Shown one piece after another: positions 1 to 45,003 of a stretch of DNA of 64,000 nt. A program made the position numbers and the translations under genes. The stretch comes from Gammaproteobacteria bacterium (GTDB taxonomy: Bacteria; Pseudomonadota; Gammaproteobacteria; Eutrophobiales; Eutrophobiaceae), in assembly GCA_965261165.1 (NCBI GenBank), contig OZ253445.1, forward strand, positions 93,965 to 157,964, read 5' to 3'. Numbering within the stretch: position 1 is the stretch's first letter; every line of letters starts with the position of its first letter. The notes beneath the pieces were generated by a model. The model made no database searches. It was not told the DNA's origin and saw nothing but the letters and a program-made list of their open reading frames with translations.

Positions 1-647
1 TCTTAAATATCAAGGAAAAAGTCGTGCATGGAGAGCGCAGTGTGTATGTGATAGATGTTATTTTAGAAATGCGTAAGCAGGGGTGGTTGTGGACCGAAGA
101 GCTGATATGGCACAAAAAAAATTGCTATCCGGGGAAATGGCCTAATCGTTTTCGCGATGCGTGGGAACGGTTACTTCAATTTAATAAAGATAGAAAATTT
201 AATATGTATCAGGAGGAAGTGATGGTTCCAATGGGGGATTGGGCAAATTCAAGATTAAAAAACCTTTCCGAAACAGATAAAACTCGTGATATTTCAAAAG
301 TAGGTAGCGGTTTCGGCAAAAATATTTCAAATTGGCTTGAGCGAGACAAGGCGTATCCAACCAATGTGTTGCATTTAGCGACCGAATGCAACAACAAGCA
401 TCATAGTGCAACATTCCCGGCGGATTTGCCGCGCTGGTTTATCAAATTGTTCACGCAAGAAAATGATTTGGTGCTTGATCCTTTTATGGGTTCGGGGACA
501 ACATTAATTGTTGCTAATCAAATGAGACGAAATTCGATAGGTATTGACATTGTTCCTGAATATTGTGAAATGCTAAAAAGCCGACTAAATCCAATTGAGA
601 TGCATCGATGCGACCCAAAGACAAAACATGAATCCATTAAATATTAG
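1..647 (+). CDS. Site-specific DNA methyltransferase (N4/N6, beta class), 5' end outside the window
   Basis: IWHK, HSATFP and VLDPFMGSGTT motifs; frame is open upstream of position 24 to the window edge; overlaps the following REase gene. Confidence 0.9.
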   Translation, partial: LNIKEKVVHGERSVYVIDVILEMRKQGWLWTEELIWHKKNCYPGKWPNRFRDAWERLLQFNKDRKFNMYQEEVMVPMGDWANSRLKNLSETDKTRDISKVGSGFGKNISNWLERDKAYPTNVLHLATECNNKHHSATFPADLPRWFIKLFTQENDLVLDPFMGSGTTLIVANQMRRNSIGIDIVPEYCEMLKSRLNPIEMHRCDPKTKHESIKY

Positions 648-1383
648 CGATGTGTCGGCTTATGTTGAAAATAACATCAGTGTTTTTCATCAAAAACGCA
701 TACGAAGTCTTGATACATTAAAACTGTCAAAGGTACTTAAGCGGAAAAACCCATATTTGTTCAAAGCCAAATATGTTTTAACTACTGAGCAAATCATAAA
801 AGGGTCAGTGAATGCACATATATCCTCAAATGAAGAAACCATTTTTGGAGATTGGCTGGAAGGACTGGCTATTTTTGTTAACGATAAAGTTTATGGTGGT
901 CGTAAATCGGGCATCACCGGCATTGACCTTGAGTTTGACGCTAACAAAAAACGATACCTTGTTGCAATTAAATCTGGGCCGAATTGGGGCAATAGCTCGC
1001 AAATAATCAAAATGAAAAATGATTTCATCACGGCAAAGAAAGCATTAAGAACCAGTAATTCCCAGCTCAACATCGTTGCTGTCAATGGTTGTTGCTATGG
1101 CAAAGACAATAATCCAGATAAAGGCGGATATTTCAAATATTGCGGTCAGCAATTTTGGTGTTTTATTTCAGGTGACAACCAGTTATTCGCAAAAATTATT
1201 GAACCGATTGGTTATCAAGCCAAAGAAAGAAACAATGATTTTTTAACCGTGTATTCACAGATGATCAATAAATTTTCTAAAGAATTTGCCGAGATGTTTT
1301 GTAAGAATAATGGCGAGATTGATTGGGATGAGCTTGTTCGTTTCAATTCTGCGGCAGAAAAAACAAAAGAAAAAGCAAAATAA
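628..1383 (+). CDS. Type II restriction endonuclease, PmeII-like family
   Basis: LKRKNPYLF, SSNEETIFGDWLEGLA, GIDLEF and IKSGPNWGN motifs; likely ATG at 628; coupled to the MTase. Confidence 0.8.
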   Translation: MNPLNISDVSAYVENNISVFHQKRIRSLDTLKLSKVLKRKNPYLFKAKYVLTTEQIIKGSVNAHISSNEETIFGDWLEGLAIFVNDKVYGGRKSGITGIDLEFDANKKRYLVAIKSGPNWGNSSQIIKMKNDFITAKKALRTSNSQLNIVAVNGCCYGKDNNPDKGGYFKYCGQQFWCFISGDNQLFAKIIEPIGYQAKERNNDFLTVYSQMINKFSKEFAEMFCKNNGEIDWDELVRFNSAAEKTKEKAK

Positions 1384-1403
1384 ACATAAACAATTACCCG
1401 CTT

Positions 1404-1415
1404 AAGACCTTTGCA
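1404..1415 (+). mobile_element. IS5/IS1106-like left terminal repeat (AAGACCTTTGCA)
   Basis: 11/12 match to the reverse complement of the TGCAAAGGTCTC ends at 14279-14290 and 44992-45003. Confidence 0.65.
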
Positions 1416-1568
1416 CTTGTGCCCTGTGGGTACTTGTGCCCTGTGGGTACTTGTGCCCTGTGGGTACTTGTGCCCTGTGGGTACTTGTGCCCTGTGGGTA
1501 CTTGTGCCCTGTGGGTACTTGTGCCCTGTGGGTACTTGTGCCCTGTGGGTACTTGTGCCCTGTGGGTA
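1416..1568 (+). repeat. Perfect tandem repeat, 9 x 17 bp (CTTGTGCCCTGTGGGTA)
   Basis: Read directly; no spacers; explains the 17-aa periodic spurious ORFs. Confidence 0.97.
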
Positions 1569-1659
1569 TAAATCAAAATACTGGCAGAAGAAAGAGCCTT
1601 GTTGAAAAAACTAGCTCGGCGTATTCTGAAACCATTTTTCATTTGCAAGCAAAATAGCA

Positions 1660-2440
1660 ATGGCATTGGCTCAAGAGCAACTAGAAGCGGTTAAGCAGAC
1701 GATTAAAAATCGTTTGCAAGATAAATTTAACGCTTACAATCCAAGCCCAGCGGTGATGCCGTTTCATACTCGATTGCTCGGCAAAGACCGGCTGGCACTT
1801 TATTCTTTTCATACATTCCCTGAATACTAATTTTGATACAACCATTTTTGAACCGGTGGCAGTATCACTAGCCGCCAGCAGGTTTAAGGTTGTAAAGCCG
1901 CAGGCAAAATCGGGCACACGAATAAGTGCTGATGCTCAAGCTGAAATCCAGAAAATAATGGATGACTTGACGACCGCAACTAAAATTCCTGATAAAACAG
2001 CCGAAATAGAAAGCATTAGACAAGTTTGTCAAACAGGACAGATTAGAACGGTTAAACCAACCAGAGTCGATGTCTATCTTGAAAGCAATGCCGGAGAAAT
2101 ATACCTCATTGATCTAAAAACTGCCAAACCAAACAAAGGTGGATTTAAGGAATATAAGCGGACACTTTTAGAATGGGTCGCAGCTGCTTTATTGCAAAAC
2201 CCAGCAGCAAAAATTCATACCCTGATTGCTATACCATACAATCCCTATGCGCCAAAACCATATAGTCGCTGGACAATGGCGGGTATGCTTGATTTAGATA
2301 ATGAATTAAAAGTTGCCGAAGAGTTTTGGGATTTTCTCGGTGGTGATGGGGCTTATAATGACTTGTTAGATTGTTTCGAGTGTGTGGGGATTGAGCTGTG
2401 CGCTGAAATTGATGAATATTTTCAACAGTTTAATAAATAA
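1660..2440 (+). pseudogene. TdeIII/MjaII-like type II restriction endonuclease, frameshifted
   Basis: ATG 1660 gives MALAQEQ...MPFHTRLLGKDRLALYS; one extra T in the run at 1806-1809; the next frame reads FIHSLNTNFDTTIFEPVA and runs into ORF 1856-2440 (DLKTAKPNKG, IAIPYNPY, EEFWDFLGG). Confidence 0.8.
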
Positions 2441-2470
2441 ATTAGTTCAAACTCAATTAGTTCAAACTCA
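2441..2470. repeat. Direct duplication, 2 x 15 bp (ATTAGTTCAAACTCA)
   Basis: Read directly, immediately after the REase stop codon. Confidence 0.9.
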
Positions 2471-2619
2471 AGCAGAGGGTAAATTATGTAAAGCCCTTGA
2501 ATGGTTCGCATACTTATTTTTCTTCATCATAACAACGGGCTGATACCACTTTGAACTTACTGTGCTGGTAAAGACCCTATTCTGATTGCCTGCCATCTGG
2601 TTGATAACAGATTTTAATT

Positions 2620-3861
2620 TTAAAAAGGTTGCACCTCGACAATAGTCCCTGATTCAACAGAAGTACTTTCCATCGGTAAGATAATGAAACAATTAGCTTG
2701 TGACATGGAGCGCAAAATACCTGAGCCTTGTGCGCCTGTTTTTTTCACTACCCATTGATTGGCTTTATCACGTTCAAGGATGCCGCGTTGATATTCTACG
2801 CGGCCGGGTTTTTTCTTTAATTTCGAGATGCAGGGCACTTGCATGGTAAATGTATCTGTTTTTATTTCTGCCATTAGATATCTGAGAGCAGGTTTAACAA
2901 ATTGTGAGAATGTCACCATCACAGAGACAGGGTTGCCTGGCAAGCCAAAAAAATGGGCATTTTTTATTTTACCAAAGGCCAGTGGTCTCCCGGGTTTTAT
3001 GGCGACTTTCCAGAAATTTACTGTGCCGGTTTCTTGTAGAATTTCTTTTACGTAATCAGCTTCGCCAACAGAGACGCCGCCTGTTGTAATAATGACATCG
3101 GCCTGAGTTGTGGCACTTTCAAAGGCTTGCTGCAGATCTTCGCGATTATCTCGAATGATGCCCATATCTATGATGTTGACATTGAGTTCTGACAGCATAC
3201 CAAACAGGGTGTATCTATTACTGTCGTAGATATTACCATTTTTTAGTTCTTCGCCGATTGAAGATAGTTCGTCACCAGTAGAAAAAAATGCGATACGTAA
3301 TTTACGTGTAACATTTGCTTCGCCAATACCTAATGATGCGATTACTCCAATATCAGCTGAGCTTATTCGAGCGCCTTTTTCTAGCACAACATCTTTAACC
3401 GCAATATCTTCACCTGCCTGCCTTACGTTGGAGCCAGGTTTGATCTCTGAATCAATCAGTATTTCGTCATCTGTTCTTTCAACATGCTCTTGCATAATGA
3501 CCGTGTCAGTAGTATCTGGCATAACTGCGCCTGTCATAATACGGACACATTCACCTTTCCCAACTTTCCCTTGATAAGGTTTTCCAGCGAATGCTGCGCC
3601 AATTATTTTAATTTTCGACGTTTTTTCTTGCGGGATATCTTTTCTGTGTAAGGCATAGCCATCCATTGCTGAGTTAGTTGCCGTAGGGACGTTCAAAGAC
3701 GAGATAATATCTGTTGCCAGGACGCGATTAAGAGATTCTCTTACAGGAACAACTTCAGATTCTGATATGGGTGATATAGCAGTATAGATATGATTTAGCG
3801 CATCGCTTACCATCAGGGAGTTTGGATCAAAATCATCTATGCAACTATTTTGTTTGTTCAT
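2620..3861 (-). CDS. moeA: Molybdopterin molybdotransferase MoeA
   Basis: SAMDGYA, RIMTGA, STGDEL, TTGGVSVG, KPGRP and GLPGNPVS motifs. Confidence 0.95.
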   Translation of the reverse strand: MNKQNSCIDDFDPNSLMVSDALNHIYTAISPISESEVVPVRESLNRVLATDIISSLNVPTATNSAMDGYALHRKDIPQEKTSKIKIIGAAFAGKPYQGKVGKGECVRIMTGAVMPDTTDTVIMQEHVERTDDEILIDSEIKPGSNVRQAGEDIAVKDVVLEKGARISSADIGVIASLGIGEANVTRKLRIAFFSTGDELSSIGEELKNGNIYDSNRYTLFGMLSELNVNIIDMGIIRDNREDLQQAFESATTQADVIITTGGVSVGEADYVKEILQETGTVNFWKVAIKPGRPLAFGKIKNAHFFGLPGNPVSVMVTFSQFVKPALRYLMAEIKTDTFTMQVPCISKLKKKPGRVEYQRGILERDKANQWVVKKTGAQGSGILRSMSQANCFIILPMESTSVESGTIVEVQPF

Positions 3862-13894: not shown

Positions 13895-13906
13895 GAGACC
13901 TTTGTA

Positions 13907-13942
13907 CTTGTGCCCTTGTGGGTACTTGTGCCCTTGTGGGTA
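13907..13942 (+). repeat. 2 x 18 bp variant of the 17-bp unit (CTTGTGCCCTTGTGGGTA)
   Basis: Read directly; differs from the 1416 unit by one loop base. Confidence 0.95.
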
Positions 13943-13947
13943 TAACT

Positions 13948-14264
13948 GTCGGAAGTGCGGCTTCAGCCGCGCAAGATAATTGTAGATGGCAGGACTTATG
14001 TACAGGGATGTACGGTATGCCGATTTTGCATGGAGCAAAAATCGGTTATGTACAGGGATGTACGGTATGCCGATTTTGCATGGAGCAAAAATCGGTTATG
14101 TACAGGGATGTACGGTATGCCGATTTTGCATGGAGCAAAAATCGGTTATGTACAGGGATGTACGGTATGCCGATTTTGCATGGAGCAAAAATCGGTTATG
14201 TACAGGGATGTACGGTATGCCGATTTTGCATGGAGCAAAAATCGGCAAAAGTCCCACTTCCGAC
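13948..14264. repeat. REP-like inverted doublet (GTCGGAAGTG-CGGCTTCAGCCG ... AAGTCC-CACTTCCGAC)
   Basis: Perfect 10-bp inverted termini at 13948-13957 and 14255-14264; internal hairpin GCGGCT-TC-AGCCGC; second hairpin GGACTT/AAGTCC split by the 50-bp array. Confidence 0.65.
13996..14245 (+). repeat. Perfect tandem repeat, 5 x 50 bp, each unit with two GGA-loop hairpins
   Basis: Unit TTATGTACAGGGATGTACGGTATGCCGATTTTGCATGGAGCAAAAATCGG, read directly. Confidence 0.97.
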
Positions 14265-14306
14265 CATTTTTTGAATGATGCAAAGGTCTCTGATTAGTCC
14301 ATTTTA

Positions 14307-44726: not shown

Positions 44727-45003
44727 GAGACCTTTGTATAATTCGCACCAATTCTACCGAAACAGGTAAAATACGACCATTCTAAAGACCTTAAAGATTA
44801 TTCGTCATGTCTTGAAAAAATATCCTGAAAAGAACCGCCCAAGGTTCGTTCGCAGATGTGCCTTTATGGGCATAAATCAACACAGATTTATGCCGAAAAG
44901 AGCATTATTGTTGCGATAGGCCATATCAATAGCATTGATGTCACTGTTTGCAAGATATTGCCTATATGTTTTGTTCGGTGGTTTTGAATGATGCAAAGGT
45001 CTC
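44727..45003 (+). mobile_element. Internally deleted IS1106-like element (MITE)
   Basis: GAGACCTTTGTATAA ... TGCAAAGGTCTC; transposase-like N-terminal relic MS*KNILKRTAQGSFAD from ATG 44807. Confidence 0.8.

Follow-up and report, generated by a model that had tools for sequence, protein, structure and literature searches.

A 17-base hairpin unit in IS5-family elements of a gammaproteobacterial genome: a candidate ultra-small insertion element

A stretch of 64,000 nucleotides (the window; positions 93,965 to 157,964 of contig OZ253445.1, assembly GCA_965261165.1) from a gammaproteobacterium of the family Eutrophobiaceae contains several 12-base terminal repeats of the type found in the IS5 family of insertion sequences (IS), and these raise an unusual question. 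At position 1404 such a repeat, AAGACCTTTGCA, is followed by an exact period-17 array of nine copies of a hairpin unit, CTTGTGCCCTGTGGGTA, referred to here as U; at 13895 the repeat GAGACCTTTGTA precedes a pair of exact 18-base units whose loop is TTGT; and at 44727 the end is empty and reads GAGACCTTTGTA|TAATTC, where the bar marks the point of insertion. All three ends read as a first-pass annotation of the window had described them, and the unit pattern that it gave has 12 matches in the window against 0.05 expected, a number reached by none of 100 shuffled sequences. Is U a part of these ends that has been multiplied by slippage, or is it an independent ultra-small element, as the annotation had proposed? 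Comparison of filled and empty sites differing by exactly 17 bases supports independence: U is a separate 17-base insertion with a fixed orientation and no target duplication, and is not part of the IS end. We put at about 70% the probability that U is a non-coding 17-base hairpin module behaving as an ultra-small non-autonomous insertion element.

Filled and empty sites in an IS5-family element

The clearest comparisons are provided by the carrier. One of the end types described below (type F) belongs to a 1.26-kb IS5-family element, whose clean form is 1256 bp long with the ends GAGACCTTTGCA...TGCAAAAGTCTC and a 331-amino-acid open reading frame (ORF) matching DUF772 (5.7e-28) and DDE_Tnp_1 (2.6e-23). 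It is the carrier, and not U, that has the DDE transposase between short terminal inverted repeats (TIRs) characteristic of the IS5 family, and its 12-mer is identical to the TIRs of ISNme1 and ISPg, listed as IS5 in the relevant table of the source (PMC4596501, Table 2).

An alignment of 32 copies of this element, 29 from a genome of Candidatus Spongiihabitans (G042) and 3 from the window's genome, contains three presence/absence blocks of exactly 17 bases, with the junctions otherwise unchanged. The first, site N, is on the sense strand in the DUF772 region, and reads CCAGCA|TACCC when empty and has U between these halves when filled. The second, site A, is on the antisense strand just after the ADSAY motif, with the empty form AGTGCCTA|TGCCAAC and the filled form AGTGCCTA-TACCCACAGGGCACAAG-TGCCAAC; it is empty in 11 copies in G042, each exactly the filled form minus 17 bases, in 7 copies in a second genome, and in 2 in the window's genome. 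The third, site I, is at base 12 of the right end, where GGATTA|TGCAAAAGTCTC is either uninterrupted or has U between. This F-type end is filled in all four of its occurrences in the window's genome and empty in about 25 copies in G042, and is the only filling private to the window's genome. There is no target duplication, as filled minus empty is exactly 17 bases, and U itself thus does not have the terminal inverted repeats plus target-site duplication of a DDE transposon or of MITEs (miniature inverted-repeat transposable elements).

Read on the U strand, sites N, A and I are all GCA|TA. The clean element contains six GCATA pentamers (top strand 10, 138 and 241; bottom strand 217, 778 and 1243), and the three sites are three of these six, the chance of which is roughly (6/2510)^3. 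The first-pass annotation had suggested that the insertion might be specific for base 12 of IS1106-like TIRs; U is indeed found after base 12 of several end types, but the target is GCA|TA, including the two sites inside the transposase gene, and U follows base 12 of the IS5-type end GAGACCTTTGCATAA because bases 10-14 of that end read GCATA. The boundaries of U may be shifted by one base (ACTTG...GGGT after GC). A model in which a 15-base element duplicates a TA was rejected, both from the empty sites and because at locus L088 it would place a stop codon at the conserved W of an rve domain.

Distribution of units and ends in the genome

The window's genome is a single closed contig (C1) of 2.125 Mb with 42.9% G+C. 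The 12-mer [AG]AGACCTTTG[CT]A is present at 52 exact sites and heads different types of ends, which we have named A, B, C, C', D, E and F. Scanning for the core of the unit with at most two substitutions yields 42 clusters, of which 22 lie directly after an inverted repeat (IR)-like 12-mer, all in one orientation and with 1 to 25 copies (25, 17, 11, 9, 6, 6, 4, 3, 3, 3, 2, and the rest singles); two are within the IS5-family transposase gene, and 18 are single imperfect matches in unrelated sequence. With at most one mismatch there are 88 units in the genome.

The ends differ greatly in how often they are filled. U follows base 12, in one orientation, in ends of types C, C', D and F and in mini-palindromes; one of seven C-type ends is filled (with two more, having degenerate IRs, from the unit scan), as are five of ten C'-type ends (with two more from the unit scan), one of six D-type ends, and the four F-type ends, and none of the 35 A-type or 22 B-type ends. 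Because the A- and B-type ends are all empty, the filling of ends reflects history and hitch-hiking and not ongoing saturation of IS ends. Among six complete C/C' MITEs the array is at the C' end in four, at the C end in one, at neither in one, and at both in none. The three mini-palindromes have the form IR-U-CAAG-IR', each with a private IR variant on both arms, and one of them folds as a perfect 21-bp hairpin (-20.9 kcal/mol).

Several other arrangements of ends and units were observed. At C1:807118-807145 there is a perfect palindrome of 28 bases composed of two abutting 12-base IS ends (IR-CGAG-IR') with no unit, which may represent a minimal MITE or result from excision or fold-back. At C1:424513-424831 a C/C' MITE has an array of six units, and after it comes a second IR whose array of three includes one internally truncated unit (CTGTGGGTA); TTATTCATTGACATTCT separates the two, and the locus has the appearance of a filled end duplicated in tandem. 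A scan for half-units, as possible ends of a longer parent element, found none in this genome, and picked up a CRISPR-repeat-like sequence, GCCCCGCACGGGGCGCGTGGATTGAAAC, at C1:~326800. The replication origin predicted from skew is near 0.92 Mb, and the units ride on MITEs of either orientation.

Unit structure and the growth of arrays

The fold of the unit is strand-specific, in agreement with the pairing on the + strand that the first-pass annotation had described. Five consecutive units fold at -15.3 kcal/mol (z -4.5) on the + (U) strand and at -9.6 kcal/mol (z -1.4) on the - strand, and all five stem pairs of the reference unit, including a G.T pair, are intact only on the U strand. There are 27 variant types, with changes mostly at positions 1-2, 11-12 (the loop), 6 and 17, and the three central C-G pairs are almost invariant; eight of twelve stem variants retain all five pairs on the U strand, including changes from T-A to C-G and from G.T to A-T. 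Reading from the sequence, unit bases 5-7 (TGC) are able to pair with the GCA of the target as they do with the unit's own GTA, such that the left junction mimics the junction between units.

The arrays resemble minisatellites, with identical units head to tail, a copy number that varies from 1 to 25 over the 22 sites, and variants common to neighbours. The two units at 13907 have an extra T in common, and one has therefore been copied from the other; all six units at genome position 512156 have a TGC loop, and GGGTG units form runs at 270346 and 798925. These array-private variants identify the neighbouring unit as the template, whether by slippage, by unequal exchange or by re-insertion on a strictly local scale. 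Units are 100% identical within the arrays of 25, 17 and 9, which are thus young. G042 contains 72 units, nearly all single and with a longest array of three, so that array growth is a property of the window's genome rather than of the element, and is what is special to this genome. We suggest that the arrays, of up to 25 units, would have grown by local duplication of resident units, through slippage or unequal exchange at a self-pairing repeat, and not by fresh insertions.

An alternative is that arrays are built by repeated site-specific insertion, or by rolling-circle copying of a 17-base single-stranded circle at a nick. The first-pass annotation had proposed that U regenerates its own target, and the first part of this idea stands in that the 3' end of U with its flank (GTA|TA) re-creates a near-copy of GCA|TA of the general form G-Y-A|T-A, and GTA|TA ends are used as targets, as at the 25-unit array. 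The junction within arrays, GGGTA-CTTG-TGCCC, can also be read as the same small hairpin as the left junction, GCA-CTTG-TGC, and the identity of the units in the three long arrays is consistent with re-insertion. What is not supported is re-insertion as the source of the arrays: variants confined to single arrays (the 18-base unit twice, the TGC loop six times, the GGGTG runs) require a neighbouring unit as donor, the units of G042 have remained nearly all single, and the window's genome, which is 99.94% complete, has no reverse transcriptase and yielded no candidate enzyme. We consider this alternative unlikely.

Units in other insertion sequences and other bacteria

An exact scan for U over one genome per species identified at least 118 loci. 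The observations in this section on their flanks and hosts apply to the matches listed, which include Methylococcaceae (Methylomonas, Methylobacter, Methylovulum and Methyloglobulus), Gallionella and its relatives, metagenome-assembled genomes (MAGs) of Chromatiaceae and Sedimenticolaceae, Endozoicomonas, sponge symbionts, Alkalibacillus, Kroppenstedtia and Spirochaetia, together with a Lachnospiraceae MAG containing a three-unit array. Five of these genomes contain 8, 72, 7, 11 and 3 units with at most one mismatch, and none has a match to the reversed pattern. The IR 12-mer GAGACCTTTGCA is absent from all five other U-bearing genomes tested, and U is therefore not dependent on this IS family.

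We grouped 125 occurrences with 40-base flanks into 74 flank families, or 72 when those internal to arrays are removed, and searched the 98 open frames of at least 50 amino acids abutting U in the 72 families for Pfam domains. Transposase-related domains (rve, DDE_Tnp_1, DUF772, DEDD_Tnp_IS110 with Transposase_20, IstB_IS21, TnpB_IS66, Y1_Tnp, HTH_Tnp_1 and HTH_21) were found at 13 loci and other domains at five, with no match at the rest. The interruption is particularly clear in L003 and L088, where, with the two flanks translated separately, the rve model is matched at 3-59 and 61-102 in the former and at 2-58 and 63-101 in the latter; U thus lies at the same domain position of two IS3-family genes, whose flanks are only 65% and 51% identical and whose units are identical at 17 of 17 bases. 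Also interrupted are rve/rve_3 (L040/L008), DUF772 (L086) and HTH_Tnp_1 (L048, with two units), and in L068 an IS30-like WEGDT motif, recognized by eye and without a Pfam match, is flanked by two units.

The preference for GCA extends in part to these loci. GCA is immediately upstream of U in 14 of the 72 flank families (background for GYA 2.7%, p 7e-9), with the looser N-Y-A in 34 and a T downstream in 48. In 13 families the two flanks fold together at -10 kcal/mol or below, as do 6.7% of shuffled pairings, and the examples in which U is located in a loop are GTAG-headed elements resembling repetitive extragenic palindromes (REPs); hairpin-loop targeting was rejected as a general rule, the enrichment being limited to the tail of the distribution.

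Further small repeats are found close to U. A second micro-hairpin, TTTACCTCGAAGAGGTT, has ten copies in a Gallionella genome, and after eight of these comes a diverged hairpin resembling U, within REP loops; the sequence directly precedes U-like hairpins in GTAG-headed REP loops in Gallionella, in a Nitrosomonadales MAG and in a genome of the window's own family (L046, L055, L067, L104, L117, L134 and L203-L210). A sister unit, TTTATGCCCTG(T/C)GGGTA, is also 17 bases long with a different 5' tail (L048, L112 and other loci); in L048 it is 17 bases from a standard unit, both interrupting an IS3-family orfA at ...KKAAAY|FAKE. In the Methylococcaceae loci L048, L091 and L035 a dispersed repeat of about 60 bases (...GCATGGATGCAGGAGGTAGGGCAACGC...GTTGCCGAGAA...) is inserted close to U in an IS3 orfA and also next to an inverted unit pair, and these genomes seem to be riddled with several kinds of micro-insertion. 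The Bacillaceae-1 RNA (Rfam RF01690; 56 and 46 bits) is found 160-185 bases from U, without overlap, in L029 (175-242) and L054 (602-669), and the 11-copy flank family of Alkalibacillus may be the repeated flank of an RNA operon rather than an IS. Five matches to U in viral contigs are within chance expectation, with flanks repeating those of bacterial loci.

A possible mechanism and the points against it

Insertion of U adds exactly 17 bases, in one orientation and without target duplication, at GCA|TA in the IS and MITE families of sponge symbionts and elsewhere with the looser requirement of (N)YA before it and T after it; a unit that has reached a mobile carrier is copied along with that carrier. 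Exact boundaries, fixed orientation and the other features listed here are hallmarks of single-strand transposition by HUH/Y1 enzymes, as in IS200/IS605 and in REPs with their REP-associated tyrosine transposases (RAYTs). From the exact boundaries, the absence of duplication, the fixed orientation, the GCA|TA target, the strand-specific hairpin and the exact empty sites we infer a mechanism of this kind, in which insertion and precise loss would be performed in trans on single-stranded DNA by an IS200- or RAYT-like enzyme, with the left cut following GCA| and the right cut following the GTA| of the unit itself. This appears the most likely way for U to move, although by analogy and with odds that we would place well below even. 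A more far-reaching proposal is that U is the smallest bacterial mobile DNA yet seen, cut and pasted as single-stranded DNA by a trans-acting and widely transferred HUH-type enzyme, targeted to GCA|TA, and a hyperparasite of IS elements, MITEs and REPs across phyla, the precise loss of which can restore a transposase; we offer this as speculation that could well prove wrong.

Gain and loss can be followed among the IS copies. The combinations of filled (1) and empty (0) states seen at sites N, A and I are 000, 100, 110, 101, x11 and x01. The single 100 copy has a derived N-site variant (GGCTA) in common with three 110 copies, and a 12-base indel marker splits the copies into two groups, with 110 copies in both. 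In a tree of the copies, read without regard to support values, ten near-identical clean copies lie amid U-bearing ones, and the most diverged copies carry the A-site unit. This homoplasy requires that units were lost precisely, that one site gained U repeatedly, or that gene conversion took place. The burst of ten clean copies nested among U-bearing ones would suggest a transposase restored by precise loss. As a separate observation, these ten G042 copies (L154-L164) have an intact ORF and are found alongside at least 14 copies with two frame-breaking units; either transposition in trans must have spread the broken copies, or precise loss from these must have given rise to the clean ones.

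A number of observations weigh against a mobile U, or against its mobility in this genome. First, no mobilizing enzyme was found. The first-pass annotation had recommended a search for a co-occurring HUH/Y1, IS110 or reverse transcriptase gene, and neither of the first two is associated with U here: Y1_Tnp matches in the window's genome are confined to an IS200-like element and a broken copy, neither of which has U in its vicinity, and the element, the only intact Y1 transposase, has unrelated end hairpins of the CTCGGGGG...CCCCCGAG type. The IS110-family gene was rejected as a candidate, being near no IR or U. Y1 genes are present in five of ten congeners that do not have U, and there is no Y1 match in G044, an Alkalibacillus (Firmicute) genome that contains 11 units. 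Among the 14 Y1 loci scanned, none has a Y1 gene whose ends resemble U; U-like units lie near only one of these (L186), where they interrupt the neighbouring transposase gene, and its Y1 gene belongs to a different IS with different hairpins. Secondly, a single unit forms a weak 5-bp DNA hairpin of only -1.3 kcal/mol (z -2.2), and location in a loop is a minority pattern, the overall shift in flank pairing not being significant (p 0.29). Thirdly, about 70 chance matches to a 17-mer are expected over the whole collection (2 x 596e9 / 4^17), and some of the loci in other bacteria are therefore chance matches. Fourthly, the target alone does not explain the distribution, as the genome contains 3953 GCATA sites and every U is within IS5-type DNA, while the A-type ends have the same GCATAAT and are all empty; either the insertions took place in other hosts or the pentamer is insufficient. 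Lastly, the Spongiihabitans genome has filled ends of the C, C' and D-like types (L065, L141-143, L145, L148 and L153), which hold between one and three units and include a single-unit D-like end (L145), so that the insertions either pre-date the arrival of their carriers here or were exchanged between the two genomes, and need not have happened in the window's genome at all. U may be inactive, or no longer mobile, in the window's genome.

Gene conversion between IS copies could also account for the homoplasy without any excision, and this is part of a broader alternative requiring no dedicated enzyme, in which U would spread through template switches made at hairpins while DNA is replicated or repaired, and through gene conversion between carriers such as IS copies, REP copies and rrn flanks. 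The carriers are almost all multi-copy, the three mini-palindromes look like fold-back copying around the U hairpin, and no enzyme was found. Template switching should nonetheless give variable lengths, and the boundaries enclose the same 17 bases across IS families and phyla; gene conversion cannot make the first copy at a site without flanking homology; and a fixed orientation, together with a target bias, speaks for protein recognition. We regard enzyme-free spread as improbable on this balance, and favour U as an insertion element.

Origin of the filled ends

The distribution of U among relatives is patchy. With at most one mismatch it was found neither in ten congeners (two of them closed genomes) nor in the 16 other families of the class that were sampled; of 14 other genera in the family one had it, in the form of a TGA-loop variant within REP loops. 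The reversed-pattern control gave no match in any of the 41 genomes. The orthologous empty site for the array at 1404 was not recovered in the ten congeners, which have diverged such that only the last ~100 bases of window positions 300-2700 match. We also considered whether native A/B MITEs could be distinguished from imported C/C' MITEs, and rejected this, as the A/B MITE too is absent from all 40 relatives.

The first-pass annotation had named as its simpler alternative a single ancestral insertion followed by slippage; more broadly, the unit could have been fixed in a subfamily of IS ends, with nothing mobile at the 17-base scale. The complete filling of F-type ends in this genome is compatible with such a history, as are the three C' ends reading ...GGGT(A/G)CAATTC, which look like descendants of one filled ancestor, the local duplication evident from array variants, and the filled C, C' and D ends, which the window's genome has in common with that of Spongiihabitans and which were thus inherited. 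The alternative fails, however, because the filled ends do not form a single clade. The F-type end empty in some 25 G042 copies differs from the filled one by exactly the unit; within the one C/C' MITE family the array is at either end, with five of six complete elements filled at one end and none at both; two further filled/empty sites lie within the transposase gene; and in genomes without the 12-mer U interrupts unrelated IS families and REP-like loops. A single insertion thus seems very improbable.

We attach still less weight to a host mechanism that would deliberately disable transposons through frame-breaking 17-base hairpins put into their ends and transposase genes. Seventeen bases always shift the reading frame, there are three U sites in a single 1.26-kb IS, and, among the matches listed, 13 of the 18 loci with any Pfam match in abutting frames are transposase-related, representing at least seven families. 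Nevertheless, filled MITEs still spread, with the same filled end at several loci, the two-unit IS copies of G042 have reached at least 14 beside the ten clean ones, REP-like loops and intergenic DNA hold many of the units, and hitch-hiking alone predicts enrichment in DNA that amplifies and is dispensable. We know of no such host system or guide. That the arrays are assembly artefacts is hardly credible: short-read contigs from four of the eight sequencing runs on record, none of them RNA (the four being of strains ~96-97% alike), all break at the array and none spans it, but the genome is a single closed contig with other exact arrays of 25, 17 and 11 units, the 153-base array is shorter than a long read, arrays occur at no fewer than ten loci (>=10) with differing copy numbers and private variants, and units and short arrays are present in independent assemblies from other projects and platforms.

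Features of the window

The features of the window are listed in Table 1. The tandem repeat at 1415-1568 has 9.1 copies of period 17 with 100% matches (score 308) and is followed by TAAATCAAAATACTGGCAGAAG, which opens TAAATCAA; empty D-type ends read GAGACCTTTGCA|TAATTCAAAATGTTGGCAGAAG. No Rfam model reaches its gathering score in window positions 1200-1800, which include the array. The first-pass annotation had seen a degenerate third copy of the unit at 44857-44880. This proves to be MITE body: the 5' part of the A/B-type MITE aligns with the IS5-family element, the segment in question matching its 5' region (GTTCGCAGATG...GCATAA.TCA), and four other MITE copies have ATGCCTTTATGGACACAAATCA, also given as ATGCCTTTATGGACAC, at the same position.

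Table 1. Terminal repeats, units and MITE segments in the window.
Feature	Position	Strand	Remarks
IS5-type 12-base terminal repeat AAGACCTTTGCA	1404-1415	+	Solo remnant of D-type MITE end
U x9, exact tandem, 17-base unit CTTGTGCCCTGTGGGTA	1416-1568	+	Nine exact matches at genome 95380-95532
D-type MITE body remnant TAAATCAAAATACTGGCAGAAGAAAGAG	1569-1596	+	Takes up exactly the sequence that follows the repeat in an empty end
Left terminal repeat GAGACCTTTGTA of complete C/C' MITE	13895-13906	+	
18-base variant unit (TTGT loop)	13907-13942	+	Two exact copies, then TAACTGTCGGAAG (opens TAACTG)
C/C' MITE body and empty right terminal repeat	13943-14290	+	Right repeat at 14279-14290, - strand
A/B-type MITE, both ends empty	44727-45003	+	GAGACCTTTGTA|TAATTC at 44727; GAGACCTTTGCA|TCATTC at 45003-44992 on - strand
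IS-derived MITE body, not a unit	44857-44880	+	Resembles U by chance

The nine-unit array is located in a restriction-modification cluster (3-2440), with an N6/N4 DNA methylase fragment at 3-647, and is flanked by genes for an EcoO109I-type endonuclease (595-1383) and a TdeIII-type endonuclease. The TdeIII Pfam match begins only at model position 66 (1856-2440) and the start, at 1661, is in another frame; this gene, just downstream of the array, is probably a frameshifted pseudogene. Beside the 18-base units, the C/C' MITE contains a 50-base unit repeated five times with 100% identity (13996-14245), and the genome seems to be prone to perfect tandem duplication within its MITEs.

Significance

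If U is mobile, the lower size limit of mobile DNA would be reduced to a single 17-base hairpin, and a layer of parasitism would be added on top of transposons, breaking the transposase genes of at least seven IS families and sitting in the ends of others. The sequence GCA|U|TA provides a defined substrate with which new activities for cutting and joining single-stranded DNA could be sought. U is also a marker for IS elements and MITEs that unrelated sponge symbionts have exchanged horizontally, and it accounts for many transposase pseudogenes called 'frameshifted', as well as for short perfect tandem arrays at IS ends, which annotation pipelines would otherwise miss.

Comparison with known systems

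The sequence of the unit, on either strand or as RNA, was not found in the literature searched (supplements were outside the search), and word searches returned only the topics of REPINs, HIP1, REPs as IS targets, and BrickBuilt. REPINs are described as miniature mobile DNA (PMC3116915). U shares with REPs and REPINs, and their RAYTs, the form of a short imperfect palindrome that folds on one strand, a dispersed multi-copy distribution and pair-preserving stem changes, and is often inside GTAG-headed REP-like hairpins. It differs in its length of 17 bases, compared to 20-40 for REPs, in its presence within transposase ORFs, and in being identical in different phyla; it begins with CTTG (TTTA in a sub-family) and ends with GGGTA, without a GTAG or CGTC head, and no cognate single-copy RAYT flanked by the repeats was found.

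The IS200/IS605 elements and their hairpin-only derivatives, the palindrome-associated transposable elements (PATEs), insert 3' of a short fixed sequence without target duplication and can restore the empty site exactly. U similarly has a short fixed target, a fixed orientation, no target duplication, exact empty sites and a strand-specific hairpin, with GCA|TA at all three sites of one IS and at the IR ends, and a single orientation at 22 of 22 IR sites. However, IS200/IS605 elements and PATEs need two different subterminal hairpins, recognized by the transposase, and a length of at least about 100 bases. U consists of a single 5-bp hairpin, with no second hairpin and no recognizing transposase found, and shows no phyletic linkage to Y1 genes. 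The small dispersed repeats (SDRs) of cyanobacteria, reportedly described by Elhai et al. in 2008, are said to be hairpin-forming clean insertions of 21-27 nt, often nested in other repeats, and we know of no enzyme that mobilizes them; they are like U in being very small hairpin insertions, and differ in sequence, size and phyla.

Two further systems resemble the carriers or the choice of target. The BrickBuilt MITE of Porphyromonas gingivalis has 12-base IS5-type terminal repeats (GAGACCTTTGCA / TGCAAAGGTCTC) and a spacer-less tandem repeat, with a copy number of 1 to 22.8 between loci and strains (PMC4596501). Its 23-base unit is central, with a leader (up to 285 bases) on one side and a tail (up to 318 bases) on the other, and the sections of that paper describing the repeat report it only in P. 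gingivalis and do not report insertion of the unit elsewhere (PMC4596501). On those sections, BrickBuilt and the carriers of U have the same terminal repeat and a tandem array, and differ in the size and place of the unit, which is central in the one and at base 12 in the other. Members of the IS1111 group such as IS4321 and IS5075 target the 38-bp ends of Tn21-family transposons, and are autonomous elements of about 1.3 kb. Their insertion into the terminal repeat of another transposon is site- and orientation-specific, as is that of U, but they are autonomous and U is 17 bases, and the local IS110-family gene adjoins no IR or U.

The carrier is thus an ordinary IS5-family element with its MITEs. 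U resembles REPs, IS200-type hairpin elements and SDRs but lacks a defining feature of each. It is real and out of the ordinary: an insertion module of very small size, carried by other mobile elements, and disrupting them, across phyla.

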